Positions 10,647-54,400 of a stretch of DNA of 64,000 nucleotides are shown here, piece by piece. Positions within the stretch are counted from its first letter, which is position 1, and each line of letters opens with the position of its first letter. Source of the stretch: Naegleria gruberi (taxonomy: Eukaryota); the NCBI GenBank assembly GCA_000004985.1, contig GG738913.1. One strand, written 5' to 3'. The notes below the pieces were generated by a model that was not told the DNA's origin, did not search any database, and worked only from the letters and a program-made list of their open reading frames with translations. The translations under genes were made by a program, and so were the position numbers.

Positions 10647-13101
10647 TTAAAATGAAACTTTGAAATTCTTTTCAATACTTGTATGATAGTTTGTAAAATT
10701 CAATACATCACTATCTCTATAACTTTCCAAAAATCTAGATAATCTCAATATTGCTTGATCTTTAGGATTTGTCTTTAAAACAGATTGCAAATAGTCTGAT
10801 ACAGTATCATACTGATTCTCTGTCAAAGTTCCAGAAAATAATAGTGTGAATTTTGTTGTATACTCATCAAATTTCAAGTTTGATGGTTTCTCTTCCAACT
10901 CAGAATACCATTCATCATCTTTGGCATGATTCTTCTTCACCACTTGATAAATCTCTTCAATTGTCTTATAATCCTGATTGTAGATTCTTTCAATTGGGCG
11001 TACCACAAATCTTCCCTTTGTTGCTATAAAGCACGGTGTATCAGCAACTATAGGAATGTTCATGAAGGTTGAGAATTCATTTAAGGTTTTTGCTCTTTCC
11101 AATACAGAACCAATCAGGGCAAAGTAACGAGTTTGTTTCGAACCAACGTTACCATTCACCATTTTACCAGAAGCCACACCCATGCAGATATCCAATACAG
11201 GCCTTCCTTCCTTAGTGAGATGATCATTGAAAGGAACAAACATGGATCTAATCTTTAAACAAGTTTCCAAAGCAGTATGTGCTGGATTCTTCTCAGAGTT
11301 TGAGAAGAAGATTACAAATTCATTATGACTCTTAATTTGTAAATCTCCTCTGCAAGTTCTACAAATATTCGAAATGGAAGTGAGTGCCTTTGAAATGATA
11401 GTTGCCATAAATCCTGGGTCATAGTCAAATGTTTCTTCTGTCAGATTTGAAAGTGTCAAATAAATGACAGCACATTCAGAACGACTCAGACCAACTTTGA
11501 AAATAGAATTCTTTCCACCTTCATTCATGAAGCTGTCCTTACTAGTTAATGAACCTGTGTGAATTGATTCTGAATAAGTTCCCTTACTAATACTTGAATC
11601 AACGGGTTGTTCTGAATATTTAACTGAACGCCTCCGAGCTCGCTTGCTATCTCTCAAATTTGAATTTTCCAATTGTAACAGGACAGAATCTGGAATAAAC
11701 GATTTGATTTCATTTAACCATCTTACAGTTTCAGTCAAACTAGTATAAATTGTTCTAGATTCACTAAATATGGATTTCCTTGGTCGAATATTTTCAAAAT
11801 CCAAAACTTCAATCATTTTCAAATCTTGCTGCAATGTAAAGAACGGATTTGTAATAACCCATCCAATTACAATACCCACCACAATACCACATAGTGTTAC
11901 AAACACAGTCACACCAATAATAATGTAACTGCTTTGAACTATACCAGCTGTAATCTCTGTATCTGAAATGAAAATGGTCATTCTCCATTTAATATTGTAA
12001 AATGAAAAGGTGCTGGTATCTACCATGTATTTGGTTCCATACGGGTCAATGATATATTTCAATGTATCGTTACATTCCACAAGTTGTTTTAACATTTTCC
12101 CAGCAAATCTTTCCTCTATTGTAAAAATATTTACTCTGTCGAAACGAATACCATCCACACAGAGTGAACTACCAATGAGATAGTTGGTATCATATTCTGA
12201 TAGTACAACAAAACCATGAGTCATGACTTTGACTTGGCTTAAATAATTGGAAATTGCTTCCAGGGATAAATTGATTTTAGAAAGTCCAATTCTATTTTTC
12301 ACACCTGGATATTCTGTCCTGTTGTAAATGGGTGTACTCCAATATGTTGCAACAGCTGCTCCCAGTGCTATTTCGATTGTTCAATTAAGAAATTAAATTC
12401 AAAGTATTTGAAAACTCACGTTTGTAAGGTTGTCCAAATCCACCCTCAGGATTACTCTTCAACATTTGAAGAGATTCCTTATAATAACCAGTATTTGAAA
12501 CTACATAACTCGTATTCTGTGTAATCCAATCAAATTGAGTCTTTCCAGTTTCTGGATTAGTCCAATATAAAATCATTCGCTTCTCCGCCTGTTTCTTCCT
12601 AAAGAATGACAAATTATCATATGTTGTTGTGTATCCATATGAAATGTCATTCCCTCTCTCTCCAAAACAAAAATTAAGGAGTGTGACATTGAACAGTTTC
12701 AGTCTACTAAACAGATATTCCTTAATATTATCATTCATGTCAATGTAACCATTGTAATAATCTTTGGCCATGGCATCAGCCACATATTTAGGACGCATTA
12801 ATTGCCTGTACAAGAACTCGCTTATAGTGTTTTTCATATTACTAACAATTTGGTCGGCCTGATCCAATGCAACAGTTTCATTCATGGAGTAAGATGTTGC
12901 CCAAATGGAAACTGCTGTGAAAACCACTAGCAATATAATGGTAATGATCAAAATTAGACGGATACTAAGCAGATATTTGAGAAGTATATTTCGTTTCTTT
13001 GCTGGCACGTTAGTTACGTCTGAACCATCTTCTTCATCTAACATATCGAGAGTCATTTGAGGAAGTGATGAATCCACATTCTGAGGTATTATCTTGACCA
13101 T
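10647..13101 (-). CDS. receptor-type class III nucleotidyl cyclase-like protein (TM - extracellular sensor domain - TM - cyclase homology domain), exons 12420..13101 and 10647..12367
   Basis: ATG at 13099-13101. A GTGAGT...ATAG intron (~12368..12419, 52 nt) joins the two ORFs in frame (...GQPYK|P|LGAAVATYW...). TM helices LILIITIILLVVFTAVSIWA and IIIGVTVFVTLCGIVVGIVIGWVI. The C-terminal block MGVASGKMVNGNVGSKQTRYFALIGSVLERAKTLNEFS matches the cyclase beta4-beta5 (RIGIH.G.V.AGVIG..R..YD.WGD.VN.A.R.E.). Confidence 0.7.
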
Positions 13102-23431: not shown

Positions 23432-25801
23432 ATGTCCATCAACAAGATTTTCACACACAATTTGGGTTTCCCAAGAATTGGAGCTCGTCGTGAATTGAAA
23501 CAAGCTTTGGAATCCTACTGGTCATGTAAAATTGATTTGAATGCATTGGAATTAGTCGGTACTCAATTGAGAAAGCAACATTGGGAACAACAATTACAAG
23601 CTGGTCAATTGGATTTAATTCCAGTTGGTGATTTTGCTTGGTATGATCAAGTTTTGGAATGGACAACAACTATTGGATGTATTCCAAAACGTCATCAATC
23701 TGATTCTGCTCAAGATCAACCTTTCCACTTGGATACTTTGTTTAGAATGGCACGTGGTAGAGCTCCAACTGGTCAACCAGCAGCTGCTTGTGAAATGACC
23801 AAGTGGTTTGATACTAATTATCACTTCATCACTCCAGAAATCAAATTGAATCAAGAATTTGCTCTTTCTCGTACTTTCCTCTTTGAGCAAGTTAAGGAAG
23901 CTGAACAAGTTTTGGGAATTGATCGTGTCAAGCCAGTTATTATTGGACCATTGACTTGGTTGTACTTGGCAAAGGGTGAGGAATTTGTTGGTTCTCTTGA
24001 TTCTAAGAAATTGACTCTTTTGGAAAAGTTGTTACCAGTTTACAATCAAGTTTTACAACAATTTAGTCAACTTGGTGTTAAATGGACTCAAATTGATGAA
24101 CCTGTTCTCTGTTTGGATTTGAATGATGAATGGAGACAAGCTTTCCAAACTTTCTATCAACAATTGAATCAATCCAAGAAGCTTAACATTTTGATTGCTA
24201 CCTATTTTGGAAATTTGTTGGACAACTTGAAAACTTTGGTCAATTTGCCAGTCGAAGCCATTCACATTGATGCTGTTCGTGCTCCACAACAACTTGCACC
24301 TGTATTGGAATCTCTCAAAAATTCCTCAAAGATTTTGTCAGTTGGCTTAATTGACGGAAGAAACATTTGGAGAAGTGATTTGGATGCTTGCATTGAAACT
24401 ATTCAAAAAGTTATCATTGGAGAATTCAAATTTGATGCTTCTCGTTTGTGGCTTTCTCCTTCCTGTTCCCTTTTACATGTTCCTTTCGATTTGAAATACG
24501 AAACTAAAATCGATGCAGAATTGAAGAGCTGGTTGAGTTTTGCTGTTCAAAAGCTGGAAGAGTTATCTTTGTTGGGTTATGCAGCCCTTCTTAAAGATGG
24601 ATGCGAAGGTTCAATTCCTTCCAATATCTCTTCTCTTCTCGCCACTCAAAGATCTGCAATCGAATCTAGAAGAAACTCTGTTAGAATCCACAATCCACAA
24701 GTCAAGTCCAGAATGAATGAATCCATCTCAACAGACAGATCACATCCATTCGATGATAGAAAGAAGGCTCAACAATCCAAATTCCATCTCCCAAAGCTTT
24801 TCCCAACCACCACCATTGGATCTTTCCCACAAACTCAAGAAATTCGTTCCATTCGTTTGAAATACAAGAATGGAACTGTTTCACGTGAATTATACGAAAA
24901 GTTCATGAAGGAAGAAATTGAGAAAGTTGTTCGTCTTCAAGAGGAAATTGGTTTGGATGTTTTGGTTCACGGAGAACCTGAAAGAAATGACATGGTTGAG
25001 TATTTTGGTGAATTGATGAATGGTTATGCATTCACTGAGAATGGTTGGACTCAATCATTTGGTAGCAGATGTGTTAAGCCACCTGTTATCTTTGGAGATA
25101 TTTCACTTGATAAGCCAATGACAGTTGAATGGTCTTCATATGCTCAATCTTTGACTGATAAGCCAATGAAGGGTATGTTAACTGGTCCAGTTACTATTTT
25201 GAACTGGAGTTTCGTCAGAGATGATCAACCAAGAAGTGAAACTTGTAAGCAATTGGCTTTGGTTTTAAGAGATGAAGTGCTCAACTTGGAAAAGGCAGGA
25301 ATTAAGATTATTCAAATTGATGAACCAGCTGTAAGAGAAGGTTTGCCATTGAGAAAATCTGACTGGAATACCTATTTGAAATGGGCAGTTGACTGCTTCA
25401 AGTTGACAACATCAGGTGTTGAAATTGATACTCAAATTCACACTCACATGTGCTATTCTGAATTCAATGACATTATTGACTCAATTGGTGCAATGGATGC
25501 TGACGTGATTAGTATTGAAACTTCTAGATCTAATATGGAATTATTACAAGCTTTTGAAGATTTCAAATATCCAAATGATATTGGTCCAGGTGTTTATGAT
25601 ATTCACTCTCCAAATGTTCCAAATGTTGAATGGATGGTCAAGTTGATCAAGAATGCTATTGAAAGAATTCCAAAGGAAAATATTTGGATAAATCCTGATT
25701 GTGGTTTGAAGACTCGTGGATATCAAGAAGTTAAGCAAGCTTTAATTGCTATGGTCCAAGCAGCTCAACAATTGAGAACTGAATTTGAAACTTGTCAATA
25801 A
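23432..25801 (+). CDS. metE: cobalamin-independent methionine synthase (5-methyltetrahydropteroyltriglutamate-homocysteine S-methyltransferase, MetE)
   Basis: MSINKIFTHNLGFPRIGARRELK start. Both MetE halves are present, with the C-terminal Zn site (HxC...E...C: IHTHMCYSEF...DCGLKTR). 789 aa in a single exon. Confidence 0.95.
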   Translation: MSINKIFTHNLGFPRIGARRELKQALESYWSCKIDLNALELVGTQLRKQHWEQQLQAGQLDLIPVGDFAWYDQVLEWTTTIGCIPKRHQSDSAQDQPFHLDTLFRMARGRAPTGQPAAACEMTKWFDTNYHFITPEIKLNQEFALSRTFLFEQVKEAEQVLGIDRVKPVIIGPLTWLYLAKGEEFVGSLDSKKLTLLEKLLPVYNQVLQQFSQLGVKWTQIDEPVLCLDLNDEWRQAFQTFYQQLNQSKKLNILIATYFGNLLDNLKTLVNLPVEAIHIDAVRAPQQLAPVLESLKNSSKILSVGLIDGRNIWRSDLDACIETIQKVIIGEFKFDASRLWLSPSCSLLHVPFDLKYETKIDAELKSWLSFAVQKLEELSLLGYAALLKDGCEGSIPSNISSLLATQRSAIESRRNSVRIHNPQVKSRMNESISTDRSHPFDDRKKAQQSKFHLPKLFPTTTIGSFPQTQEIRSIRLKYKNGTVSRELYEKFMKEEIEKVVRLQEEIGLDVLVHGEPERNDMVEYFGELMNGYAFTENGWTQSFGSRCVKPPVIFGDISLDKPMTVEWSSYAQSLTDKPMKGMLTGPVTILNWSFVRDDQPRSETCKQLALVLRDEVLNLEKAGIKIIQIDEPAVREGLPLRKSDWNTYLKWAVDCFKLTTSGVEIDTQIHTHMCYSEFNDIIDSIGAMDADVISIETSRSNMELLQAFEDFKYPNDIGPGVYDIHSPNVPNVEWMVKLIKNAIERIPKENIWINPDCGLKTRGYQEVKQALIAMVQAAQQLRTEFETCQ

Positions 25802-30379: not shown

Positions 30380-32915
30380 ATGGTACAAATCCAACCAGTA
30401 AACAATCAGAAAGAATCCGCCTACCTCAATGATGACTATTCTTCTGAACAATCGTCCAGTTTAATCTCCTCCTCTGAAAAGTCCTTCAGTGTTTCCTTCA
30501 AATTTTGTATCATTGCCACTACTTCCTCACTAGTTGCATTTAGCATAATCATCTTGACAGGTATCTGGTTAGCAAGTATCACTTCCACCTCATTGGAAAT
30601 GTCAACAACTTTGAGAGAGAATGAATTCTTCAAGATTCGTCAATTTTGTCTTCAATTAATTCAAGATGTTTATACAGTTTCAAATACGGTTACTGGTCAA
30701 TTAGGTGTTCAGTTCAATTCTTCCTCAGATAATGAAAAGGCGCTGTCAATGTACCGTCTTTACAAGTCAGAAATTAGCTCATCTCACAAGTCAATTGTGG
30801 CAACTTTGTTTATTGCTGATCCACAAGCAACCCTTGTTGGTTTATACATTTTTGGAGGAAAACCAGTCAAGTTTAAGGCAACTCAGCATGTTTCCCTTGA
30901 TTTATACTATTGTAATGATGTAGAGAATTACGATTATTGTAATTCAAATTCGAAACCTGATTTATCACTTCCTGCTTTTGATAATTCGAGACCTGTTGTT
31001 GCGTGTAATGAAAATCCGAATGGAACTTTCTTTTTACCTTCATTCGCTGATGTTACTTTGCCTGATTATATGTTTCTTACATTGATTTATTGTTTTCAGG
31101 GAGATAGTGTCAGTAGAGTTTCGTCTGGTTTCAAATACTTGTTTGCTTATCAATTGTCTTCGAATACATTGTCTGAATTCTTGATTAGTAGTACCAAGTC
31201 AGTTGTTTCAAGTGTTGCTTTGGTTATGGAAATAGATACAGGTTATGTTGTGGCAAGTAAGTTGACAAATTTTCTATAGATTTTACTTTCGAATAATTAG
31301 CCAATATGGAAAACTCAAAACTGTCAGTTTTGGATAACAGTGGAAACATCAAAAGAAAGGGATTGCTCGACTTGACAGATCCTGATCAATTCGATGTTTC
31401 CTCATATGTTTACAATCAATTCAAAACAAATTACAAAAACTCAATTGAGTGCAATTCAAACATGTACTTTTCCACAAGTACAAGATACATTTCCGTATAT
31501 AGAATGTGCAAGGGAATCGACTGGTTACTCATTTACTCAGTTCCAATTTGGAATTATACAGGTAGCTTAGTAATTGCAGTTGTTTGTGCCATTTCTGGAG
31601 GTTTACTTATTTTGGTGTTTAGTGCCATTTTAGGAGTGGTCTTATCTGTGAGAATTGTAGCTCCATTTAAGAATTTAATAATGATGTTTAATAATGTTTC
31701 GAACATGGATTTGGATTCTTTAAATTTGGATTCCAGTCGTTTCAATGAAGTTCAGCAATTGCAATACCATTTCATGTCAATGGTCAGACAAATCAAACTC
31801 TACAGATCCTTCTTGCCCTCTCATTTATTAGCTCAAGTAAGTTGATTCTCTCTTCTATGTGTTGAAGAAATATAATTCAATTTCACAATATTCAGATTGA
31901 TAATAATGAAAATGATGGAAACGAAACTAATCAACCAAAAGATCAACAAGTTGAAAAACACGAAACTGCCTCCAAATCTTCCAAATCCTTCTCTAGTCAC
32001 CAATCTAGTCACCAAATTTCCAATTCCTCATCTTCCATGTTAAAACACAAAGGACACATCAATAGATTCGAATTGTATTTAGAACACAAATCTAGTACTG
32101 CACTAGCTCTCTATATCAAAGGACTTTCTCAATTATTTGCTCAACATTTAAAGACAGAAAAGGAAATCCTACATGTTCTTAAAGAGATTTTTGAAATTAC
32201 CAATTCAGTTTCCACACAATTTAACGCCCAAAGAGGAAATTTAGAAAATGACACAATTATTTTGACATTTAACACTTCCATAAATGTTAATCATCATGAA
32301 TTGAAAGCAGTTGAAGCAGCTAACGTATTACAAGGCAAATTACAAAAACTTTCTGAAAAATGGAACTCTAGTATTGATACTGAACTATTTTACAATCAAC
32401 TTAACTTTCGAATTGCAATTTGTAATGATAATACTTTTTGTGGAAATGTTGGAAGTCATGATTGTAAGAATTTTACAAGTATTTCATGTTTGAAACCTCA
32501 TTTAGTGAGCTTGTTTGCTAAATCTCAATCCATGAATGTCCAAATTATTCTTTCAGATGCAATTTATAAGAAAGTTTCGTCCAAATTCGAAACTAGATGT
32601 ATTGGAAAGATTGATTGGTTGAGTGGAAAGAATGAATTCAGTCTTTTCCCTTCAATTGACCAAACCAATGAACCACCACACCTTACTCATGTCCACGAAT
32701 TAGGAAATTCATTGACAATCCAAATGGACGAATGGTTATACGAATTGGAACAAAAAGAAAAATCAAGCAAATGGAAAGTTTACAATGCAGCAATTGATTG
32801 TTTTGAAAAGAATGAATTTGAACAGGCAAAACAATTTTTTGAGGAGTTTTTGAGTAAAAATCCGCAAGATATTCCAACTTTGCACATGATTAGAGAATGT
32901 GATTTGAAACTATAG
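30380..32915 (+). CDS. receptor-type class III cyclase-like protein, paralog of 10647..13101; exons 30380..31256, 31301..31836, 31896..32915
   Basis: ATG at 30380 (the ORF track starts at a GTG at 30359). Introns: GTAAGT..TTAG at 31257..31300 (44 nt) and GTAAGT..TCAG at 31837..31895 (59 nt). Both join in frame, and the 47 codons from 31896 to 32036 are open. TM helices FCIIATTSSLVAFSIIILTGIWLA and GSLVIAVVCAISGGLLILVFSAILGVVLSV. C-terminal FRIAICNDNTFCGNVGSHDCKNFTSISCLKPHLVSLFAKSQ resembles cyclase beta4-beta5. TPR-like tail. Confidence 0.7.
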
Positions 32916-32992
32916 TTTAGTTTCGTATGTATAAAACTAAACTTTGAGTTTACAAAGATTAACAGAAACTACCTTTGGAACTGTCAAAAAAA

Positions 32993-34669
32993 ATGTCGTC
33001 AACAATCAACAGCTTGATAATTGCGCTCACTTTCGTCTTGCTGTTAACTAATCTTGTCGAATGCACCATTAAAAAATCATTTTCACAAGATTTAACACCA
33101 ACTCTCCTAAATCCTCTCCGTGGTTTCGCCAGCTATGAAGATTCGTATAAAACCAACAAGTTTCCACAATCTTTAGAATATCGTTATTTTTCCATGAAGG
33201 AATTAATGAACGGAACACAAAGTTTTACATTTTCAGCAACTTTGGAACCATACTTGAATAATGTCAAGTCAAGAAAGAGACAAGCCATCTTTCGTATATA
33301 TCTTGATTATCCGAATTGTTGTCCTGATGGTCAATATAATACAGGAGTGCCAGATTTTCTATTGACAGGTGCTAATCCAGTTACATTTACATCTTATCCT
33401 GATTATGGTGGTGGTAAATCACCTGATTATTCGAATGAAAGATTAGTTTCGTCCATTGAACAATTAATTGCTGAACTTGCAAGAAAATATGATGGAGACA
33501 ATAGAATTGCATATGTTCAAGTTGGAATTTTAGGATATTGGGGAGAATTCCACACTTATCCAAATACTACATTGATGGCTCCATTGGCCACAAGACTCCG
33601 AGTATTGTCCGCATTTTACAATAATTTCAATATTACAAAATTATTAGTTTCACAAGATTCAATGCAATACTTTTGTCCACCACTTGCTGGAACGACTAAG
33701 AATGCAGGATGTGATGTTTCGGTTACTTCAGCTCCGTATCCAACAGTTTCGTATCCATCTATTGGATTCCACGATGATGCATTTGCGGATTCAACTTATT
33801 CAGCAACCAGTGGTAAAGATTATTACTTTTACAATAGATTACAATCTAGAATTCCAGATATTAATTCATTCTTGACTGCTTCAAATGGAGGTAAGGGAGG
33901 AGGAGTGATGGGTGGTGAATTATATCCATCCTATCAATCGAAAATATTTAAAACAACTTGGACAGGTCAGGATTTCTCACAATGTGTTAAAAAGACCAAT
34001 GCTACATGGTTGTTGAATGATTATGTATTTTCTACTTTGGCTAATTCACCAACTACTGAATGGTATGCTGCAAGAAATGCTTCATTAATGTTGGGTTATG
34101 CATTTACATTGAGAAATGTGGAAATGACAAGTATCACAAGTACTTCATTGACTTTGACATTTGGAATGGAAAATATTGGAAGTGCACCATTCCCATATTT
34201 GGATATTAATTTGGCTGTTTATTTGAAAAATGCAACAACTAAAGCATTGATTGCTTCTAATGAAGCTACTTCAATTTATCAATTGACTCCTGCAAGTGGT
34301 TCACAAAATATTAAGGTAAATTTAAAGTGGTCAACTCCAATTACAACAAGCCCATATGTTTATGTGAATTTGAAGAGTAAGCAAGTTCCATCAACCATCC
34401 CAATTGCATTTGCTGTGAGTGGTGCTCCAACAGATGGTTCAGATTTTTTAGTCATCTCAACTGTTGAGCAAATTTCAACTAATGGAACAACTCCTACCCC
34501 ATCTCCAACACCATCACCACAATCATCTGTCAAGACAAGCTCTAGTACTGGAAATAATGGTGGAATTAAAACAGGAAACTCTACTAGAACAGTTTCAGAA
34601 TCCTCCTTGAATAGTTATGTTTCATCTTGGATCATATTTGCCATTTCTTTAATTTATCTGATTTATTAA
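32993..34669 (+). CDS. secreted, GPI-anchored putative glycoside-hydrolase-like protein with Ser/Thr/Pro-rich stalk
   Basis: ATG at 32993 (the ORF track starts at a TTG at 32975). Signal peptide MSSTINSLIIALTFVLLLTNLVEC. Conserved blocks RIYLDYPN and GILGYWGEFHTYP. TPTPSPTPSP linker and hydrophobic C-terminus WIIFAISLIYLIY. Confidence 0.65.
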   Translation: MSSTINSLIIALTFVLLLTNLVECTIKKSFSQDLTPTLLNPLRGFASYEDSYKTNKFPQSLEYRYFSMKELMNGTQSFTFSATLEPYLNNVKSRKRQAIFRIYLDYPNCCPDGQYNTGVPDFLLTGANPVTFTSYPDYGGGKSPDYSNERLVSSIEQLIAELARKYDGDNRIAYVQVGILGYWGEFHTYPNTTLMAPLATRLRVLSAFYNNFNITKLLVSQDSMQYFCPPLAGTTKNAGCDVSVTSAPYPTVSYPSIGFHDDAFADSTYSATSGKDYYFYNRLQSRIPDINSFLTASNGGKGGGVMGGELYPSYQSKIFKTTWTGQDFSQCVKKTNATWLLNDYVFSTLANSPTTEWYAARNASLMLGYAFTLRNVEMTSITSTSLTLTFGMENIGSAPFPYLDINLAVYLKNATTKALIASNEATSIYQLTPASGSQNIKVNLKWSTPITTSPYVYVNLKSKQVPSTIPIAFAVSGAPTDGSDFLVISTVEQISTNGTTPTPSPTPSPQSSVKTSSSTGNNGGIKTGNSTRTVSESSLNSYVSSWIIFAISLIYLIY

Positions 34670-34693: not shown

Positions 34694-37600
34694 TTATTTG
34701 AATAAGCGAACTAGTTGATAGATTATGAAAATAACCAACATAGCATGGAGAAGGAAATGCACAATCATTGATTTGCTTATCAATGATGACTGCTTTCGTT
34801 CTACAGATTCGAATTGGACGTGTAAAATTCTCATACTTGAAGCCATCAATCCAGCAAATGGAATCCAACTTGGTGCCATGAATGGATATCTTTCTTTCAC
34901 GCCACCAATTTGTTGTCTTTCCTCCATTTGGTATTGCTCTGAAACTAGCTTTGCCTTTCTGTGAAGGGAATGCACAAATGGTTCAGCATCGACAACAAAG
35001 GATTTGAATGGACCTCCCTTATTGAGAGATTTCACAGAGCTTGGTGTGAAGAAATACGGAGCAAAGCCTGACATTTCAAAAAGAATATTACTACCTGGTA
35101 GTTTCTTTTCCAACATTTCGAATATTTGAACAAGTTGTGACTTTTCAAAGTAGAGGAATAGACCTTCTGCAATTACCAAAACTGGAATTGACTCACCAAA
35201 TGATTTTCTTATGAAAGCAAGATCTGAAAATGTTGATTCTTCTAGAATAGATCCACTTTTACATTCGTATAGTGGTTGTTTCGTATTGTCATTATTGTTA
35301 ACAATATTAAAAACTTGTCTTCTCAATTCAATGACATTTGGCAAATCAATATCAATCCAATGCACCTTCTCATTCATTCCAAATAATCTTTCATATCTAG
35401 AACACAATCCACATCCCAAATTAACAATCATTACCTTTTCATGCTTAGCCAAACTCTTACTCACAAATTCTTGTGATTTCCTATCCAAGACAATAGTTCT
35501 CCCAACAATATTAGTTCTGGTAATTCTATCATTCTGAACATCAACAGAGAGATCTTCTGGTAAGTTTTGGAAGATTTTCACAGCAATTGGATCATATAAA
35601 ATTCCATCGCTTTCAAGAGATTCGAGAGCTCTGGAAACGAGTGGAATGTAGAGAGTTCTTTCGAGAGGTGTGAGGACAGAGTTCTTATCTTGAGCAATGT
35701 CTACGTCAAAAGGAGTTGGATTATGTGATGATTGTTGTGGAGAGCCAAGAATGGAATGTGAAATAAGATTCGAATAATGTTTGTCAAGTTGATGTCCACA
35801 ATTCTTAACAGTAATAATATTCAATCCATTTCCTGCAAACTTATTCCAGTTGTTAATTGTATTTCCTGTTACTAATTTATCAAATTCGCCTCTGAGAGCA
35901 ATAACTGGACAGTCAACTTGGTATTTTCCAAAAATGTCATCGTCATAACAATGATATTTCAATAAAAAGTCAAATTGGTGTTTGAAAAGTGGAATTTCCA
36001 TCAAATCTCTAATCTTCTTTGCCTTTTCATCCAAGTTCTCAATTCCTTCTGTTACATTAGGGAACAAGTCAAGATCGACAATTCCATAAATGATCGATTG
36101 ATCTCCCAAAGTTTTAAATTTCACATAAGAATCACCATGAAGCGAATTTCCAGGAGCATTTCCACTAACAATCAATTTTACAGGTTTCTTATTGAACTTG
36201 AATTGAATAAATCTTGTAAATTCAAGAGCAACCAAAGCACCCATGCTGTGTCCATAGATTGTAACCGTATTGGAATTAAATAGTTGATGGACACAATCCC
36301 AAACTTGCATGAAATGAGCAGTCCAATCAGAATTATTTCTCAAATAATCCAAATTAATCACATAAATGGAAAATTCTTCAAGATTTAAATCTCTAAAATC
36401 ATGAACTGTTCCACCAAGTGCTGGAAAACAGAGTAAAACATTCTCTGATGATCTTTCTTGGATAGTTTCTAATAACAAGTGCTTTTCTAATGAATTGGTT
36501 TGATTTGGACTATTAGATTGTTGTGTTAATTGTTGATTGGATGATTTTCCAGAATTGGAAATCATTTCAACAAGAGTAGAAACCGAAACTCCAGATAAGA
36601 GAGTCGAAACTGTAATACTTGATGAAAATTCTCTTGATAGAATATTTCTTATTTCTACACTCATGAGAGAATCAAGACCATAGTCAACAAGTGGTTTCTC
36701 CAGTTGAATTTCACTTTCGTCCATTCCAAAAACTTTGGATACAATATCTGAAACCTTTCTAACAATTCCATCAACGTTAGAATCTGTAGTTGTTGATTTT
36801 CCTTCAATATTTGATTCCTTTCTTTGACGACCAAATGTTACATGAGGTGAAAGTGAATCCTCAGGCATTTCAAATCCAAAGAAGGTCATTGCAGGAGGAA
36901 GATCCATCTCGTGTTCAATCAAATATTCGAAATGATCAAGTAAATCATGAACATGCATAGCTCCAACCCAGAAATATTCATCAACTTCTGCCTTAGTTGC
37001 ATATCCAGCTCCTGTAATCAAACTTAGACCTAAAGATTGTCCAGCCAATCCACAACTTCTTCTATAGCTACACAAAGATTCTAAGAAATAATTTCCACTA
37101 TTATAGTTTGATTGACCGAATGCTCCAACCAAAGAACTGAAAGAGCTCAACATTAAAAAAGTGGATAGATTGCAATTGAGCTTGATTGAACATTGGTGAA
37201 GGTTGAAACCTCCGAGAATCTTTGGTCTGGCAACAGTTTCGTACTTTTCTTTTGTCATCTTATTTGCAGCACAATCGGATAAAACCATTGCTGAATGGAC
37301 AATTCCTGTAATTGGGAATTTTTGATGGATTTCTTGCATTGTTTGATAAAGAGTTGAGTAATTGCAAATATCAGTAATGTAAACATCAATAGATGCATTA
37401 GGGTTATTCAGCATAATCTTGTCAATGATCAATTTTTCAGATTTGTTTGGCATTCTTCTTGTAAGAAGGGCAATGTTTGAGACTTTCATCTTTTCAACAA
37501 GCCATTCGCACATCTTTAATCCAATTCCACCCAATCCTCCACTAATAACCCAACAACCGTTATTCAATATCTTCTTTTGAGATGTCAAAGAATTATAAAT

Positions 37601-40600
37601 AACATTGGAATAAAAGTGAACAAATCTTCCACTTTCAGAATAAACAATTTCATCATGAGTATAAACAGATTCAAGGACATCATCAACAATTTCACCAATT
37701 GAGTTTTCTGAACATTTAGGTTGCATATCAATAACCTTTAACTTCTTTTGGAATATCTCAGTTTGAATTGATCTCAAACATCCAACAATAGAAGATTGAG
37801 AAATGTTACATTCCTGATTGTAACCAAAAACTGAACTAGTTAGAGCAACGAATTTACATCTGCCAGTATTGAACTTGAGTATCTTACAAATTGAGTACAT
37901 AGATTCCACACAATTGGAAACTGTTTCAAACTCGAAAGAGCTTAAAGAAAGTGGCCAACCGAAAATAATTCCACAGATATTCAAAGTTTGATTGAATATT
38001 GATTCGAAATGTTCAAAATCTGCAGGATTAATAACGAATCCAGAATCAAGTTGTTGGAATTTTTCACCTTGAATAATTTTGACAACTTTTACACCTCTAG
38101 ATTTCAATTCTTCACACAATAAATTTTCCTTTTGTGTTTCAGAAGAGAAGAACAACCATCTCTCAACATTTTTCTCTTTCTTCTTTGCTATAATGTAATT
38201 TGCAGTACCAATTGGCAACATGACATTTGAAGGGAAATCACAATCCAATAAAACTTGTTCCCACTCATTTCCTGATAGCAAAGCAGATTGCTTTCTGAAG
38301 GAATCCTTAAAATACCACCATCCCTTCAAAGTACCAACGAAAAAGTGTAAAAATTGAGCTCCAAGAGGATCAGACTCAACTAGGACTAATTGACCATTGG
38401 AAACCAACAAGCTTGAAATGAGTGAAAAGACGGATTTCAAATCTTGAGTAGCATGAACAACATTAGCAGCGATTACCAAATCAAACGAATCCTTTTCAAT
38501 GAATTCTGAAGAAACAAATGGCTTTTCAATATCTAATAAAGAAAATTCCATAAAATATTCGAATTGTGCAAACTTTTCCTTTGCCTTCACCAAAAACAAT
38601 GGTGAAATGTCTGTGAAAACATACTTCACATCTATATAATCTCTCAATGAATCAAGAATTGGTAAAATTTGTTTGGTTGTTCCTCCAAGTCCAGCTCCAA
38701 TTTCCAAAATTCTCAAAGTCTTCTTTTTACCATTCTTTGGAATGGAGTTCAAAATAAAATCAAACAATGGTTTAGTTTGATGAGAAACTTCATCATAATA
38801 ATCATTCAATACATGTTCTTTTCTTGAAAATAGGACAGAAACAGGATCTGCCTCACCAGTTAATAATTGCTTCATGTGAATTAAACTATTTTCCACCAAA
38901 TCGATCAGATTGGAATAAAGATCAATTCTTGGAAATTCTCTCAAGGATTTGATAATATTAAATCTATTAGGAAGATCACTAACTACTGTATAAGTATCTG
39001 AATCATATTGGACAAGATTCATTTGTAAAGCCAACTCAATAGTCAATTGAGCAAGTCTCTTCAAATGTTCTGGTTGAATCCTAGAATTCAAAACAGAAAG
39101 CTCGATAGTAGAACTTTCACATAACTCTTGGAATACATTCAAACAATATTCAACACAAACCTTGGTAACAAATCTATTAAGAGATTCGTGTTCGTTTGAG
39201 TATTCATTGAGTTTGAAATTGAGAATAAACTCTTGCAATGATTCCATAGAAGGAAGAATAGATTTAGAATAGATTGGTTGTGGTGCAAAGTTTGATGATA
39301 CAATAGAAGTTTCTTGAAGTTTCTTTTCTTTGGTTTCCAAAGGTGAAACTTTGAAACCATTGAAAGAAATAAATGGCTCATTAGATTCTCCCAAAACTTG
39401 TAAATCACAAGTAATTTCTTTTGTTTGAGCATTCTTCGAATATTTAACACATCTGGTGATGGTGTGTTTCGAATTGTTTGGTTTTCTATGTGGGATGATT
39501 GTAATTTCGTCTGTGGAAATTGGAAGATAGGTTGTATCCTCTGGCATTGAACAAATCATCATTTGGAAACATGAATCAAGCAATGCAGGATGCCATGTAC
39601 AATATCTTTCGTCATTTTCCAAAGCTTTTGGATGGGAAATTTGTGCCATCAAAACTTCTCTTGTTTCGTCATGTCCAACTTGGCTGTACAAATCCAATCC
39701 TTGGAAACAAGGTCCATAATTGAGGCCACATTTGGACAGATTGAAATAGATATTCTCCTTATGAATGTTTTGTGTTTTTTCATCAAGATTTTCTGTGAAA
39801 TTTCTGAAAATATCAAAGGCTTTCAATTCTCTGTTTGTGAAATTGATGGAATCACCAGAATTAGAAGAATCTAGAGTTTTGAAAGAACCAAAGGCATGTA
39901 AAGTCCAATCACAAGGTAGCTTATTTGATAACTTGGAAGGATCTTTGGAAATTTCTGAATAATTAATAGATAACAAGTCAACCTTCTTTTTGCTGAAAAT
40001 TCTAAACTCATTAGCATACAAATTCAAATGAACTTGAACAATTCTAGGCTCTTGTTGTAAAATCATTGGATTTACCACTTTGAAATTGACTAGACGAAGC
40101 TCTTCAACATTCTTGGACGAGTTATCAAGAATTGCTGCAGAACTAATCTCAACGAAACCAGAATATGGGAAGAATACTTCATTTTCAATCTTGTGATCTC
40201 TAATATACATTTGATCAGTGTTAGAACTAATATCAATAAGACTCTCATAGATAATATCTGGAGAATTTTCCATTGGATTGAATTTTCTGTTACCCAAAAG
40301 TGGATGATTAATAGTTTCGAATTGACCAATTCTCCATCTCAAAGATTCATAAGATTCTGACCAACAAGATTGTTTCTGGAAAGGATATTTAGGAATTCCA
40401 TCCAATATCTTACTATTCTCTCCATATCTATTAATTTGTTTCCAATCAAGTTTAGAATATCCATTCACAAACAATGAGGAGACAACTTGTAACAAACTCA
40501 TTTGTTCATCCTTCTTTCTAATCAATGTTGGAATTACAGAAATAGAATCTTCATTTCCTAATGAAGAAGACGAAATATCCTTAATGTATCCATTCAAAAC

Positions 40601-43184
40601 CGGATGGGAAGATATTTCAATAACATATTTGATTGAGTTTTTGTAAGTGTGAAAAATCTCTTCCATAGCTTGTGAAAACAAAACCTTCCCTCTGACATTA
40701 TTCCACCAATATTCTGGTGTTGACATTTCTTGGAGGTTTGACTTTCTTCCAGTGACAGTAGAGAAAACGGCTTGAATATTATCATTTGGTTTGGTTCCTC
40801 TTTCCTTTTTTGAGATTCTATTAGAAAGAACTTCTAATAACTCTTTCTTGATTACTTCCATATGGCTGGTATGGAATGCAGCTTCATTTCTCAAAAAGAC
40901 ACAGTTGACTCTTGAGTTTGGTTCATTTTCCACATACTTGGTGAGATCAAGTTGCAATTGTTTCAACACATGTTCTTCACCACCAACTACAACGGAGGAA
41001 TTACTATTTACAGATGCAATCTCAACAGTATTGTTAAATCCAAGAATATCCAAAATTGAGGCCAATTTGTCCAATCCTAAATTGATAGCCATCATTTTAC
41101 CTGTTTTAGAAAATTCTTTCAAGATGGTTGCACATTTGTTTTGCAATCTTGCTCTATGATAAATCAAGAATACAGCTTCCTCTAGAGTGAGGCATCCATG
41201 CACGTATGCAGCTGTCACTTCTCCAACTGAATGTCCAACAACAATTCGAGGAGTGACTCCATATGATTTCAATACTTCATAACAACCACATTGTACTGCA
41301 AAGATACATGGTTGAGCAATGTTGGTTGAGTAAATTCTGGTGTCCTTTTCTGTTCTTGTAGTCAACTCTTCTACAATTGACCACTTGTCATTGGTTGGCA
41401 TTATCTTTTGCATTTCTGAATCAATTCTTTCAACTGTGGCAGAGAAAACATTGTTGGTTTCCAATAATTGTCTTCCCATAGCAAACCATTGAGGTCCTTG
41501 TCCAGAGAAAACAAAGCAAATATCGGATTTTTCTTCTCTCTTGCTTGAGTTACCAATGCTAGTTGATTCATTAGATGAAAAATTGGAGGACAATTGGAGG
41601 AGCTTTTCAACGAGCTCATCTTTGTTGTTGTAAATGATAGAAGCTCTGTAGTCTCTGAATTGACTCTTCTTTTCACAATAGTTGAAAAGTAAATCATCTT
41701 GATTGCATTGAGCTGAAAACTCAGCAACGCTACTAGACATCATCTTGAGTGAGTATTCACTCTTGGCAGAAAGTGGAAGAATTCTAATACCTTCTGATAT
41801 GCTATTCTTTCTTTGATGTTCTAATTGCTCAACACTTTGCAAGATGCAATGAGCATTAGTACCACCCATACCAAAGGAATTAATTCCAATAATAACAGGA
41901 TTGATATTAGAAGGGATTTCTTCTTCTTGCATGACAACTCTAATTTGTTTCTTCTCAAACTCAATGTGAGGATTGAGTGTGCTCTCAGTGCAATGAATAC
42001 TCTTAGCTATCTTCCTATGTTTCATCATGAGAATAGCTTTGATAATACTTGCAATCCCACTTGTTGCCTCTGTGTGACCAATATTACTCTTGACAGAACC
42101 AATTGGTAACTTGTCAAGTTTGTGCTTTCTTCTTTCTCTTCCAAAGAATGAATCAAGAGCTTGAGTTTCAATCTTATCTCCAATAGTAGTTCCAGTTCCA
42201 TGACTTTCAACATAATAAACATGTTGTGGAGGAATGCCACTCTTGTTGTACACTTGTTCCAATAATTCAACTTGTCCTTCCAGAGAGGGCATTGTTATTC
42301 CACTCTTTCTTTCTCCATCGTGATTGACCCAAGTTGACATGATCAAAGCATGAACTCTTTCATGTTGTGAAGAATTCGCATGCTTGTATGTGTTGATGAT
42401 GAGATGATGAATCTAATTTCTTCAAAATTAATACAGCAACACCTTCAGATTTTCCATAACCATCAACATGTGAAGAGAAGGTTTTACATCTTCCATCTGG
42501 TGCTGCTGCTCCAATAAGCTTTTGAGATACAAATTCTTGTGGAATGTAGTTTAAATTAACTCCAGCAACAATGGCCATTTCGCATTCATCTCTCTGTAAA
42601 CTTTCACATGCACAATTGAGTGCTACCAAACTTCCTGAACACATGGTATCGAGAGTGAATGACGGGCCTCTCAAATCGAAATGATACGAAATCCTGGCAG
42701 AATTGTTAGCTGGTGAAGAGTTTATCAAACTGTACGAGTTGTAAGTTTGCATGTCATGCCAGCCTTTCATGGTGAGATAATCTTGGTTCATCACAGAACA
42801 AAACACACCAATGTTTCTTCCTCTGATTTCTTCCCATTTAATTCCAGCATCCTCCAAGGCAATGTAAACTTGTTGAAGAAGGAGACGATGTTGTGGATCC
42901 ATGGAGCATGCTTCCTTCTTGGAAATTTCAAAGAATTCAAAATCAAACTCATCTAATGGTTTCTCCAAGAAGTGAGCCCTGTTGTAGGTTTGCTTATTGT
43001 TGTGGAATCTTGATGATTGTCTTTCCTTTGGTATGGTTGAGCTGGTGTCACTACCGTCAAGAAGAACTTGCCAGAATGATTCAACATCCACTGCCTGTCC
43101 AGGGAACATACAACTCATTCCAATGATGCCCATTGGTGAGTTTTCAGCAGAGTTTGATGGAGTAGTAGAATTGATAGAAATCAT
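34694..43184 (-). CDS. iterative type I polyketide synthase, KS-AT-DH-cMT-KR-ACP-TE-(TcmP/LCM-type O-methyltransferase)-TM; KS domain frameshifted at ~42363..42390 (two ORFs 42360..43184 and 34694..42346)
   Basis: ATG at 43182-43184 (MISINS...IIGMSCMFPG). KS motifs TMCSGSLVAL, HGTGT and GGTNAH. AT GHSVGE. DH HPLLGNRKF. cMT LEIGAGLGGTT. KR GGLGGIGL. ACP GLDSLMSVE. TE GHSMGALVALEF. LCM/TcmP-family VNLGCGLCSRYERL. C-terminal helix IVHFLLHAMLVIFIIYQLV. No ER domain. Confidence 0.9.
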
Positions 43185-51418: not shown

Positions 51419-54400
51419 TTAAGCCAAGTTAAGTTGTCCAATCAATACAATACAAATCAACACTAAATATACCAATGAAATTGCAGTTGCTGATGCTTCA
51501 GACACACGTTGACTTTTGGATGGTGTCACATTTTTGCTTCCAGAAGTTTTTGGAGTAGTGATACTCTTGCTTGGTTGAGGAATTGAGCCACCAGAAGAAG
51601 TGGATGGTGTTGGAGTAACTGTCTGTTCACACAAACCATTAACCAATGATTCTCCTTGAGAACAAGTTAAGGAAACTTTTCTAATTCTATTGTTCGAATC
51701 ATCTGAAATGTATAATTCACCTACTGAGCTCACTGCCAAACCTGTTGGAAAGTTCAATTGAGCACTTGTTGGTAAAGACCCATCTCCGCTCAATCCTGCA
51801 ATTCCATTTCCAGCACTTGTGCTAATAGTTCCATTGACATTCAATTTACGAATTCTATGGTTATACGAATCAGCAATGAACAAATCACCAGTTGAGCTAA
51901 CAACTAGGCCACTTGGATAATTCAATTGATAAAGTGATGCATTATTTCCTTCACCATTATATCCAGCTGTTCCATTTCCAGCAATTGTTGTAATTATTCC
52001 ATTCAATGAGACCTTACGAATTCTATGATTATTAGTGTCAGAAATCAGCAATTCTCCATTGGAATTGACTGCTACATAGCTTGGATTATTTAATGTGGCA
52101 CTTGTTGCAAGACCACCATCTCCACTAAAACCTGCAACTCCACTTCCAGCCACAGTGCTAATATCACCATTGGTTGCAATCTTTCTAATTCTATGATTAT
52201 TCGAATCAGCAATGAAAATTTCACCACTTTTTGAGCTAATTGCAAATGATTGAGAATTCAAATAAGAGTTAACTGCAGAAGAGCCATCGCCCAAACCACC
52301 AGCAACTGTACTAATCTTTCCACTAGAAAGTTTACGAATTCTTGAATTGAAAGAATCAATAATGAAAACGTCACCGTTCGAATTGGAAGAAACTCCACTT
52401 GGATAATTGAAACATGTACTTGTGGCTGCCAATCCATCACCATTGAAACCAATCGCTCCACTTCCAGCAATGGTTGAAATGTATCCATTCGCAGCTACCT
52501 TTCTAACTCGTTGATTGTATTGGTCAGAAATATAAATTTCTCCAGAGTTTCCAATAGAAATGCTGAATGGGAAATTGAGCTTGGCATTGGTAGCTAATCC
52601 ATTATCTCCACTGAATCCAGAAGTTCCAGTTCCTGCAACAGTTGTAATGATACCAGAGGATGAAGAAACCTTTCGAATTCTATGATTACCAGAATCGGCA
52701 ATATAAATATCATTATTAGTCAAATTGACTGCTACTGCAAATGGAACGAACAATTGAGCATTAATGGCCAACCCATTATCTCCGCTAAATGTTGCCTTAT
52801 ATGCAACTGTTCCATTACCAGCAATTGTTGAAATATAACCACTAGTAGAAACTTTACGAATTCTATTATTACGAGTATCGGTGAAAATCAATTCACCATT
52901 TGAATTCATTGCAATTCCATTTGGATAATGGATTTTGGCAGATATGGCCAGCCCACCATCTCCACTGAATCCAGATTCTCCACTTCCTGCCACAGTTGAA
53001 ATGATACCACCAGTTGAAATCTTTCTAATTCTGTGGTTTTCAGAATCGGAAAAGTAAATTTCACCACTCGAGCTCACTACCACTCCTTTTGGATTATTCA
53101 ATTTGGCACTTGTAGCAGAGGAGCCATCTCCACTGTAGCCACTTGTGCCAGTTCCAGCAATTGTTGTAATGTAACCATTCGAAAGTTTACGAATCTTGTG
53201 ATTGGAAGAATCTGAAAAGTAAGAGTCACCATTAGAAGAGATGAAAATAGAGTTTGGATTATGTAATCTTTCAGTGATTGCTAACCCATCGCCACTGTCA
53301 GCTCCAATAGCACCAGTTCCTGCTACAGCTGTCAAACTTGATTTGATTTTTGACAAATACGAACCAAGATACATGACATATACTTCATTATTATAATAAC
53401 TAACTGCAGAACCCAAAGGAGTTACTGAACTAAGAGTGGAAATTACATTAGTTGACAAATCAACTCTTCTAACTTTTCCATTATCAGTAAATAAAAGATT
53501 ATTTCCATAAATAATAGGATTTCCATTTGGAGAAACAAATGATTTGCTTGCTTGAACATCCTCTCCAAAACTTGAGGTACCAGCAAATGTTGAAATCACC
53601 CCACTTGCAGAAATCTTTCTAATTCTATGATTATACGAATCTGAAATGAAAATTTCACCTACAGAGTTGACCACAATTCCAGAAGGCAACCACAATTGAG
53701 CATTAACGGCCAAACCACCATCTCCACTCAATCCAACAGTTCCTGTTCCTGCAATTGTAATAATGGTACCATTTGTCAAAATCTTTCTAATACGATTGTT
53801 AACAGAATCTGAAATGAAAATTTCACCATTCGAATTGACTGAAATTCCACTTGGATAATTCAATTGAGCATTCTTTGCCAAGATGGAATCTCCATTAAAA
53901 CCAGCAGTTCCAGTTCCTGCAACTGTAGTGACAATACCACTATTCGAAATCTTTCTAATTCGATGATTTCTTGAATCTGCTACAAATAGTTCACCATTCG
54001 AATAGAATGCTGCTCTTGGTGCATTGAATTTGGCATTTGTGGCCTGTCCATTATCACCACTGTATCCAGCAGCTCCAGTTCCTGCAATAGTTGTGATATT
54101 TCCAATGGAGGAAACCTTTCGAATAACATTATTAGAAGTATCGACAATAATAACTTCACCACTTGAGGAATTAAGAGCTAAACCGTATGGAGAGTTTAAA
54201 AGCGCATTCGTAGCAAGACCCCCATCACCACTATAACCATAGGATGAGGCAGTTCCAGCAATGGTTGAGATTTTTCCATTTGTAGAAACCTTTCGAATAA
54301 CATGATTGGAGGTATCAGCAATGAAAGTTTCTCCCAAAGAATTAACAATTACACCATAAGGAAAGTTAATTTCGCTCTGTGTAGCCAATGCACCATCTCC

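Follow-up and report, generated by a model that had tools for sequence, protein, structure and literature searches.

Two Naegleria gruberi receptors whose cyclase homology domains have probably lost their catalytic function

Does a receptor that carries a class III cyclase domain have to be a cyclase? The genome papers on Naegleria, that of the brain-eating N. fowleri included, treat the many membrane cyclases of these organisms as evidence for elaborate environmental sensing through cAMP and cGMP (PMC9928731). The 'adenylate/guanylate cyclase' expansion described in the genome papers runs from 81 to more than 100 genes. Two cyclase-like receptor genes, here called A and B, lie in the stretch of 64,000 nucleotides analyzed here (the window), part of contig GG738913.1 of the N. 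gruberi assembly GCA_000004985.1. A preliminary description of the window had suggested that their catalytic residues might be degenerate.

Gene A is NAEGRDRAFT_53402 (13101..10647, minus strand), encoding 800 amino acids with one intron of 52 nt, and gene B is NAEGRDRAFT_74351 (30380..32915, plus strand), encoding 810 amino acids with two introns. The introns are short and of the GT..AG type, both genes are eukaryotic, and the reading frames of 800 and 810 codons are unbroken with proper splice sites. The NCBI model of gene A has a longer intron, so that 57 conserved amino acids are missing; our model of gene B is identical to XP_002670620.1. BLASTP aligns the two proteins with 20% identity across 485 amino acids (E = 2e-12). 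The preliminary description had given two paralogous genes at these coordinates; the coordinates are right, and by sequence comparison A and B are true but distant paralogues. A tblastn search found no third copy within the window.

Both genes are under purifying selection. Exon 2 of gene A differs at 18 positions from L002, a 98%-identical strain variant; 16 of these fall inside 525 residues that are matched 100% by P0001, which makes them silent, and the remaining two each change a third codon position. For gene B there are 19 synonymous and seven non-synonymous differences between strains (pN/pS 0.09), with a divergence of 7.8% in the introns against 1.35% in the exons. The higher divergence of the introns confirms their positions. 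We also considered whether the serine-rich linker of A could be an overlooked intron. This was rejected, as its strain divergence is exon-like, with two differences in 162 nt, both silent.

The two proteins share a common order of elements: a transmembrane (TM) helix, an ectodomain of about 300 amino acids, a second TM helix, HAMP-like helices, a serine-rich linker, the cyclase homology domain (CHD), a D-E-W-x-Y-E-L-E helix and a TPR-like tail. The coordinates are collected in Table 1. The simpler layout of two TM helices around an ectodomain of about 300 amino acids, followed by a cytoplasmic CHD, had been noted before and is borne out by two strong hydrophobic helices in each protein and by profile searches for the CHD.

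Table 1. Positions in the window of the elements of genes A and B.
Feature	Position	Strand	Content	Basis
A exon 1	12420..13101	-	aa 1-227 and first base of codon 228; cytoplasmic N-terminal tail, TM1, membrane-distal portion of ectodomain	ORF and splice reading; hydropathy
A intron	12368..12419	-	52 nt, GTGAGT...AAATAG	splicing makes frame colinear with paralogues P0002/P0004
A exon 2	10647..12367	-	aa 228-800 and stop	ORF and splice reading
A TM1	12898..12966	-	aa ~46-68	hydropathy
A ectodomain	11934..12897	-	aa 69-372 (intron included); double-Cache (dCache_1-like) sensor	profile and paralogue model
A TM2	11856..11933	-	aa ~373-398	hydropathy; long helix in paralogue AF2 model
A HAMP-like segment	11667..11855	-	aa 399-461; helix-connector-helix and conserved F-I-P-D-S-V-L-L-Q-L helix	model, conservation
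A linker	11505..11666	-	aa 462-515; Ser/charge-rich, family-specific insert	pLDDT <50
A degenerate class III CHD	10935..11504	-	aa 516-705	profiles, alignment, AF2 model
A catalytic columns 1-3	11454-11456; 11334-11336; 11322-11324	-	T532; I572; N576	
A catalytic columns 4-6	11118-11120; 11097-11099; 11085-11087	-	A644; E651; T655	
A C-terminal module	10650..10934	-	aa 706-800; D712-E713-W714-Y-S-E-L-E helix and TPR-like helices	conservation, model
B exon 1	30380..31256	+	aa 1-292; tail, TM1, most of ectodomain	ORF, splicing, hydropathy
B TM1	30497..30577	+	aa ~40-66	hydropathy
B intron 1	31257..31300	+	44 nt	3 strain differences in 44 nt
B exon 2	31301..31836	+	aa 293-471; remainder of ectodomain, TM2, HAMP-like part	splicing, hydropathy, family conservation
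B ectodomain end	to 31563	+	within exon 2	
B TM2	31564..31638	+	aa ~381-405	hydropathy
B HAMP-like segment	31639..31836	+	includes F-L-P-S-H-L-L helix	
B intron 2	31837..31895	+	59 nt	5 strain differences in 59 nt
B exon 3	31896..32915	+	aa 472-810 and stop; Ser-rich linker, degenerate CHD, DEW/TPR-like module	
B linker	31896..32063	+	Ser-rich	
B degenerate CHD	32064..32708	+		profiles, alignment
B catalytic columns 1-3	32112-32114; 32238-32240; 32250-32252	+	Y544; N586; D590	
B catalytic columns 4-6	32475-32477; 32496-32501; 32508-32513	+	T665; P672/H673; S676/L677	
B DEW/TPR-like module	32709..32912	+	W751 at 32733-32735	weak TPR_2 match, E = 0.038

A and B are not an isolated pair: each represents a separate subfamily within a large family of the Heterolobosea. 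At E ≤ 1e-30 this comprises 105 representative sequences from at least four species, and every named member of the 107 relatives analyzed comes from Naegleria or Willaertia. Each of the two proteins has full-length relatives of about 30–45% identity in several species. A word-indexed protein search with B gave no match; an exhaustive HMMER search then found its subfamily.

The class III domain is not recognized by Pfam in the single proteins. Against the PF00211 profile, proposed earlier as a check on the domain, A scores 12.8 bits (E = 0.092) where the cut-off is 21.9 bits, B gives no match, and single-sequence Pfam and PDB searches with either protein returned cyclase matches that were sub-threshold at best. 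Profiles were therefore needed to establish the homology. PF00211 matches 30 of 58 relatives at E ≤ 0.01, these 58 being the part of the 107-member alignment covered by the Pfam scan. A profile of all 107 members matches solved class III cyclases with E values of 3.5e-18 to 1e-10, including CyaB (3r5g, 3.5e-18) and Cya2 (2w01, 3.2e-15), and the profile of the B subfamily alone matches CyaB at 2.2e-8. An AF2 model of A residues 400–800, built from a shallow alignment of 16 sequences with bacterial cyclases among them, superimposes on CyaB with a TM score of 0.83 and an rmsd of 2.6 Å (Foldseek); its CHD blocks mostly have pLDDT values of 82–95. The class III cyclase homology domain of A and B is thus established by the profile searches, and in A also by the model.

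What has become of the active site? The six catalytic columns were defined by seven bacterial cyclases that match PF00211 and were included in the MAFFT alignment; these read D, K, D, T/S, N and R. At these positions A has T, I, N, A, E and T, none of them canonical, and B has Y, N, D, T, P and S, of which D590 and T665 are canonical. The pair of metal-binding aspartates (F-x-D of β1 and G-D of β2–3) is replaced by T532 and N576 in A, and corresponds to Y544 and D590 in B. The substrate-defining lysine and its partner, Asp or Thr/Ser, become I572 (adjoined by K573) and A644 in A, and N586 and T665 in B. For the transition-state Asn and Arg of helix α4 we find E651 and T655 in A; in B these are P672 or H673 and S676 or L677 according to the alignment, with MAFFT and HMMER one residue apart. 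Most of the B-like paralogues have an asparagine adjoining the canonical column, where B itself has histidine. The G633-N634-x-G636 motif is kept in A.

Three independent alignments (HMMER profiles against CyaB and Cya2, and MAFFT with the seven bacterial cyclases) place the first metal column alike. The preliminary description had an Asp-to-Leu change there in A; the region was correctly chosen, but the aligned residue is Thr532, in the sequence L-T-L. It had read the second Asp region as SHNEFVIFF, and the formal alignment agrees, with the column at Asn576 within S-H-N-E-F. No canonical metal-binding aspartate is thus found in A, and B lacks the first, the second being D590.

The same is seen through the family. 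The first metal column is Asp in none of the 107 members, even at ±1 residue, and is K, R or H in 57; the second is Asp in 32, and the T/S column of the substrate pocket is kept in 61. Even if every residue may be one position out in either direction, not one of the 107 completes the metal half-site or the Lys/Asn/Arg half-site, and B retains one residue of each. Given this, and the loss of all six residues in A, no pairing would rebuild a canonical active site. A and B are therefore probably genuine pseudo-cyclase receptors, predicted to be inactive on the basis of residues known from other class III cyclases to be indispensable; the earlier suggestion of pseudo-cyclases or sensor proteins is in this respect upheld. 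One idea was that the metal had given way to a salt bridge between a basic first metal column and an acidic second one; we rejected it, as the columns do not covary (Fisher p = 0.44).

The ectodomain of A matches Pfam dCache_1 weakly (E = 0.0018, score 18.3 against a threshold of 45), while the family profile matches dCache ligand-binding domains, with E values of 1.8e-10 for 6mni and 1e-7 to 1e-8 for PctB, Mlp37 and Tlp3. For an AF2 model of the paralogue P0002, 43% identical to A and standing in for it, every top structural match listed is to a dCache ligand-binding domain (TMt ≤ 0.72). No CHASE match was found in Pfam scans of A, B and 58 relatives. Thus the ectodomain of the A subfamily is a dCache domain and not CHASE, on the strength of the profile matches and the P0002 model; this settles for A's subfamily a choice that had been posed earlier. 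The ectodomain of B has no dCache match in Pfam or PDB. Aligned with the A-ectodomain profile by hhalign, its profile gives a probability of 86.6% and E = 4.4e-6 over 273 columns, and it appears to be a divergent homologue.

The HAMP-like segment is seen in the AF2 model of A as helices 2–15 and 26–52, with a further helix 55–75 (model numbering), and P402, F451 and P453 are conserved within the family. A HAMP profile search gave weak matches to Af1503-HAMP (E 0.6–1.1), in register across 49 residues; Pfam PF00672 (HAMP) has no match in A, B or the 58 relatives. At the C-terminus the model of A has helices 314–338, 345–361 and 366–380. Evidence for TPR is weak, with single relatives among the 58 scanned by Pfam matching Fis1_TPR_C (2.4e-4) and TPR_21 (3.7e-3). 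A match to DUF7809 in A (E about 0.001) is present in one of the 58 members and was judged to be due to chance. Trp714 is invariant in all 107 members, and the DEW-x-YEL positions are 75–89% conserved. The separation between the conserved proline and the first metal column is 61–110 residues in the family (median 78; 79 in A), compared with 28–32 in canonical relatives. The invariant D-E-W-x-Y-E-L-E helix, a disordered serine-rich insert that separates the signalling helix from the CHD, and retention of the G-N-x-G hairpin are traits specific to this family.

The closest relationship, in both sequence and structure, is to the bacterial class IIIb receptor cyclases, i.e. CyaB of P. aeruginosa, Cya2 of Synechocystis and the dCache/CHASE2-HAMP-CHD proteins P0156–P0163. 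The G-N-[IVM]-G-S hairpin and the Thr/Ser substrate column characteristic of this subclass are common to these and the A/B family, and so is the order of sensor (periplasmic or extracellular), TM helix, HAMP or HAMP-like segment and CHD. The bacterial enzymes have all six canonical catalytic residues, which are lost in A and reduced to two in B, and they lack both the serine-rich insert and the DEW-x-YELE motif. Two metagenome sequences of eukaryotic appearance, P0082 and P0141, have the dCache-TM-CHD layout of A, with HAMP and TPR segments as read by eye. They are colinear with A and its relatives over the full length at 20–23% identity, and a C-terminal TPR-like Y-N-x-x-F-x-E-A helix pair is common to them and the A family, again by eye. 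Yet they retain D, K, D, T, N and R at the six columns, have 32 residues from the proline to the first Asp in place of 79, and lack the insert and the DEW helix.

The proteins had been called ACG-style. ACG of Dictyostelium, an osmosensing adenylyl cyclase, is active and its sensor is of the CHASE type. In topology (Saran & Schaap 2004, cited in PMC9928731) it has an extracellular sensor flanked by two TM helices and, after these, one cytoplasmic class III domain. The comparison is good for topology but goes no further, since the sensor of A is dCache, the CHD is degenerate, and A and B have the extra HAMP-like, linker and DEW/TPR modules. Passages of Ebenezer et al. (2019; PMC6366073) ascribe to Euglena gracilis and N. 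gruberi a Cache1-HAMP-NCIII subfamily of nucleotidyl cyclases, which appears to have the domain architecture of A and B, in the same group of organisms. Those passages call the proteins cyclases and say nothing about catalytic residues, whereas the Naegleria/Willaertia branch studied here is without them. We found no explicit mention of pseudo-cyclases in Naegleria in the literature searched.

We consider it the most probable explanation, at roughly 0.6, that A and B are receptors derived from a bacterial-type receptor cyclase, in which the CHD is now a pseudo-enzyme and signalling occurs without synthesis of cAMP or cGMP. The ancestor would have had a dCache sensor, TM helix, HAMP, class IIIb cyclase domain and TPR, and A and B would be single-subunit transmembrane receptors. 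A small extracellular ligand may bind the dCache domain, with the dead CHD retained as a dimerization or conformational module. The signal would then leave by protein–protein interaction through the DEW/TPR-like tail, and the serine-rich linker is perhaps phosphorylated during output.

Class III domains act as dimers, and degenerate partners are known from mammalian C1/C2 and sGC α/β. A and B might therefore be regulatory subunits that heterodimerize with active receptor-cyclase paralogues, tuning them or acting as dominant negatives, so that cyclic nucleotide is the indirect output. They keep a dimer-forming fold and the G-N-x-G hairpin, and canonical cousins of like architecture exist in P0082 and P0141, but these are metagenome contigs that are not tied to Naegleria. 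The mammalian AC C2 domain, the pseudo-sites of sGC β and the second domain of Dictyostelium AcrA have kept the fold for dimerization or regulation; there a complementary half-site works with an active partner domain, whereas A and B are single-CHD receptors with no usable half-site, and no member of the family carries a complementary one. Both chains contribute residues to each site, so that pairing with a complete enzyme would leave two incomplete sites, and could only inhibit. The family is very large and has an invariant C-terminal motif of its own, which a pure inhibitor could do without. We regard this explanation as unlikely, and the need for a heterodimer partner that had been proposed is not supported.

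The pocket might still bind ATP, GTP or a cyclic nucleotide, making the CHD an intracellular allosteric sensor integrated with the extracellular signal. The fold, the β4–β5 hairpin and, in the majority of members, the T/S pocket column are consistent with this, but the residues for triphosphate and metal (both Asp and the Arg) and the base-recognizing Lys are lost without being conserved as anything else, and we think it highly improbable. That A and B are active cyclases with non-canonical residues, or that the alignment misplaces those residues, is scarcely credible. K573 and E577 of A adjoin the Lys and second metal columns, B keeps D590 and T665, and some members have the second aspartate. 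However, two-metal catalysis in the class III fold requires both aspartates, and the first column, on which the alignments concur, is often basic. Decaying pseudogenes or prediction artefacts might explain the sub-threshold Pfam scores of single sequences and the failure of the word-indexed search with B. This is already refuted by the patterns of strain divergence, with no non-synonymous change across 525 residues of A, a low pN/pS in B and introns that diverge faster, and the intact frames, proper splice sites and full-length relatives also stand against it.

How far might this extend? If the A/B family cannot make cyclic nucleotides, the inference of cAMP/cGMP sensing from the number of cyclases needs to be revised, and the automatic name 'Guanylate cyclase domain-containing protein' is no guide to enzyme function in this family. 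It would also amount to the large-scale conversion of a bacterial-type sensor-enzyme into a eukaryotic receptor that is not an enzyme. More tentatively, much of the Naegleria 'adenylate/guanylate cyclase' expansion could consist of non-enzymatic chemoreceptors, independent of cyclic nucleotides, with the invariant DEW helix and a TPR-like hairpin as a new output module and with a phosphorylatable serine-rich tether; we would not put this at better than a reasonable conjecture. Such receptors would be specific to the Heterolobosea and assembled from bacterial parts, a sensor such as dCache or NIT being joined to a HAMP-like segment and an inactive CHD. The invariant tryptophan, the serine-rich insert and the dCache pocket provide handles for experiment.

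The paired receptor genes A and B encode a class III cyclase homology domain (CHD) that retains the fold and has lost the catalytic residues. The genes share two strongly hydrophobic helices around ~300 residues, as the preliminary description proposed, and are indeed paralogues, of a distant kind (20% identity across 485 aa, E=2e-12); tblastn found no third copy within the window. The proposed PF00211 test failed on single sequences, where A scores 12.8 bits against a cut-off of 21.9 bits and B has no match. With phmmer, single sequences give weak matches in the PDB (E~0.01-0.2), nearly all of which are cyclases. A 107-sequence family profile matches CyaB (3r5g, E=3.5e-18) and Cya2 (2w01, E=3.2e-15), together with photoactivated cyclases (PACs), soluble AC, CyaC, Rv1625c and mammalian ACs; a profile from the B subfamily alone matches CyaB at 2.2e-8 and Cya2 at 7e-8. 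The AlphaFold2 model of A residues 400-800, based on an alignment of only 16 sequences with bacterial cyclases among them, has a mean pLDDT of 75, and 82-95 over most of the CHD. It superimposes on CyaB with a target-normalised TM of 0.83 and an rmsd of 2.6 Å, and all 50 structure matches listed are class III cyclases.

The catalytic columns were taken from an alignment of the family with seven PF00211-positive bacterial cyclases, every one of which has all six canonical residues in the motifs F-[ST]-D, D-K-[FY]-x-G-D, Y-[TS] and V-N-x-A-x-R. This alignment bears out the suspicion that both genes are degenerate.

Residues of genes A and B at the six catalytic columns
Column	Bacterial cyclases	Gene A	Gene B
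Metal Asp 1	D	T532	Y544
Substrate Lys	K	I572	N586
Metal Asp 2	D	N576	D590
Substrate Thr/Ser	T/S	A644	T665
Transition-state Asn	N	E651	P672
Transition-state Arg	R	T655	S676

When CyaB and Cya2 are aligned by HMMER, both Asp, Lys and Thr fall in identical columns. For the B subfamily HMMER places the Asn and Arg columns one residue away, at H673 and L677, and under either alignment the transition-state columns of B lack Asn and Arg. Most B-like members have an Asn one residue past the canonical column, the position of His673 in gene B itself. Throughout the family, Asp is absent from the first metal column and from the residues on either side of it (0/107 members), the column being occupied by K, R or H in 57. 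No member of the 107 has both metal Asp together, and none has the complete Lys/Asn/Arg set, allowing a tolerance of one residue. The best-preserved member has four of the six catalytic residues.

In the class III active site two Asp come from one chain, and Lys, Thr/Asp, Asn and Arg from the other; the site is reportedly always composite in this way. Because each site needs residues of both chains, no homo- or heterodimer among the family proteins should be able to form a canonical site. A need for a heterodimer partner had been suggested, and this falls with the lack of a complete half-site among the 107 members. A and B are very probably unable to make cNMP by the canonical mechanism. They are homologous to class III cyclases and fail their defining catalytic features, and on this sequence evidence should not be filed as cyclases.

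Has the loss been followed by decay? Contigs at 98% identity to the window are present in metagenome ERZ929261. Two of them, L001 (3400 nt) and L002 (1973 nt), are 98-99% identical over the regions tabulated below, and thus a second N. gruberi-like strain was present in the sample; it served for dN/dS estimates and intron checks. Exon 2 of gene A differs from the strain at 18 positions, of which 16 fall within 525 residues that are 100% identical as protein, the other two being at third codon positions. Gene B has 19 synonymous and seven non-synonymous differences (pN/pS 0.09). Both genes are under purifying selection, and the comparison refutes a reading of A and B as pseudogenes. The two introns of gene B carry 8 differences in 103 nt as against 1.35% in the exons, a higher divergence that confirms their positions.

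In an exhaustive HMMER search, for which A exon 2 and B exon 3 were combined with two relatives into one profile, the number of proteins matched (representatives at 50% identity) was 8325 at E<=1e-3, falling to 1064 at E<=1e-10 and to 105 at E<=1e-30. Full-length relatives at ~30-45% identity exist for both A and B, in a separate set for each. All organism-named members come from N. gruberi, N. lovaniensis, N. fowleri or Willaertia magna, and the others from metagenomes; those of N. lovaniensis and N. fowleri are named 'Guanylate cyclase domain-containing protein' in UniProt. Among 58 members scanned with Pfam (E<=0.01), PF00211 was found in 30, dCache_1 in 11, NIT in three, and EGF-type domains and a periplasmic-binding-protein-like domain in one each. 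The sensor part thus varies, and the cytoplasmic part is constant.

The choice left between CHASE and dCache is settled as dCache for the subfamily of A. The family profile matches dCache ligand-binding domains (6mni, 1.8e-10; more weakly PctB, Mlp37 and Tlp3), and an AF2 model of aa 1-438 of P0002, a relative 43% identical to A, shows a long helix and two alpha/beta modules (pLDDT 73.5). The top Foldseek matches listed for it are all dCache domains or chemoreceptors containing them, including PctA, TlpC, Mlp24/37 and Tlp3. For the B ectodomain there is no direct match; hhalign pairs it with the A ectodomain profile at a probability of 86.6% (E=4.4e-6, 273 columns). TM2 is followed by a helix-connector-helix with a conserved Pro, which is HAMP-like, yet matches Af1503 HAMP structures only weakly (E~0.6-1), and then by a signalling helix with the conserved motif F-[IL]-P-x-x-[VIL]-L-x-Q-L. 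Its counterpart in canonical relatives is the [FY]-V-P-x-x-V motif ahead of the catalytic domain. From this Pro to the first metal Asp the family has 61-110 residues (median 78), compared with 28-32 in canonical relatives, owing to a low-confidence, Ser-rich insert (20% Ser). The CHD is followed by a D-E-W-x-Y-E-L-E (DEW) helix, whose Trp is invariant in 107/107 members, and then two to three TPR-like helices, for which TPR matches are weak.

P0082 and P0141, both encoded in metagenomes, run colinear with the family (dCache, TM, HAMP-like, CHD, TPR-like). Their six catalytic residues are all intact, and neither protein has the insert or the DEW motif. For this reason the most likely origin of the family is an active class IIIb-type receptor cyclase, and the Thr/Ser substrate column and G-N-x-G-S hairpin, which are shared, agree with that origin. 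P0082 lies on a contig of 35% G+C beside ABCG-transporter, RCC1-repeat and hybrid histidine-kinase genes, and is likely a protist relative standing for the active ancestral state.

The explanation we favour for A and B, with a probability of about 0.62, is that of a receptor whose dCache domain would bind an extracellular small molecule and whose dead CHD would act as a dimerisation or conformational scaffold. Its output may then run through binding of other proteins by the DEW/TPR-like tail, with phosphorylation of the Ser-rich tether as a possible modulator; this specific route is put forward tentatively. In the main rival, A and B would partner active paralogues and inhibit or regulate them. 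A dimer of a family protein with a complete enzyme would be expected to hold two incomplete sites; we consider this rival unlikely. Non-canonical catalysis is less likely, as is nucleotide sensing.

Pseudo-enzymes and degenerate cyclase domains are already familiar. The present case, in which a whole family of the receptor-type class III cyclase kind is pseudo-enzymatic and has conserved modules of its own, is real and well supported; it merits notice for its scale, for how well it is conserved, and for what it means to the 'cyclase-rich Naegleria' narrative. At least 81 cyclases are counted in Naegleria genome papers (PMC9928731), and a Cache1-HAMP-NCIII architecture has already been described for Euglena and N. 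gruberi (PMC6366073). A search of the accessible literature returned no statement of catalytic-residue loss in these domains. The comparison with Dictyostelium ACG holds for topology and goes no further.

The window has ~34% G+C and short GT..AG introns, and is eukaryotic; exact sequence matches assign it to Naegleria gruberi. Our three-exon model of gene B is identical to NAEGRDRAFT_74351 (XP_002670620.1, D2VZ42). Gene A is NAEGRDRAFT_53402 (XP_002670665.1, D2VZ34), annotated by NCBI at 743 aa versus 800 aa here, with 57 codons (aa 228-284) spliced out. The annotation has probably made this intron too long: the residues are in frame, both paralogues P0002 and P0004 conserve them, and the second strain differs within them solely at third positions. 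Another family member that looks mis-modelled is P0003, an annotated paralogue of gene A (N. gruberi predicted protein, 686 aa), which lacks most of the CHD present in its ORF-level version P0002 (837 aa).

The MetE, GTPase, kinase and NHL/teneurin-like neighbours are ordinary eukaryotic genes, and nothing ties them functionally to A or B. The very large polyketide/fatty-acid-synthase-like gene, a 2550-aa ORF with an upstream 274-aa ORF, has KS, AT, DH, methyltransferase, KR, ACP, thioesterase and C-terminal leucine carboxyl methyltransferase-like domains. The gene 60 nt downstream of gene B encodes 564 aa with a signal-like helix at the N-terminus, DUF4832 (E=2.8e-7), a stalk rich in Ser/Thr/Pro and, at the C-terminus, a hydrophobic tail. 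The probable product is a glycoprotein of the cell surface or a glycosidase-like protein.

Coordinates of the genes and contigs discussed (in the window, except P0082)
Feature	Coordinates	Strand	Remarks
Gene A model	13101..12420 + 12367..10647	-	800 aa, one intron
Gene A region affected by annotation difference	12197..12419	-	true intron 12368..12419 (52 nt)
Gene B	30380..32915	+	810 aa
Region matched by L001	30893..34266		
Region matched by L002	10450..12435		
eEF1A-family GTPase	5463..7004	-	
Ser/Thr protein kinase	7966..9759	-	
Cobalamin-independent methionine synthase (MetE)	23432..25801	+	
DUF4832 gene	32975..34669	+	
Type I polyketide/fatty-acid-synthase-like gene	34694..43184	-	
NHL/teneurin-like repeat protein	51419..54709	-	1096 aa
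P0082	L003 6001..8259		metagenome contig
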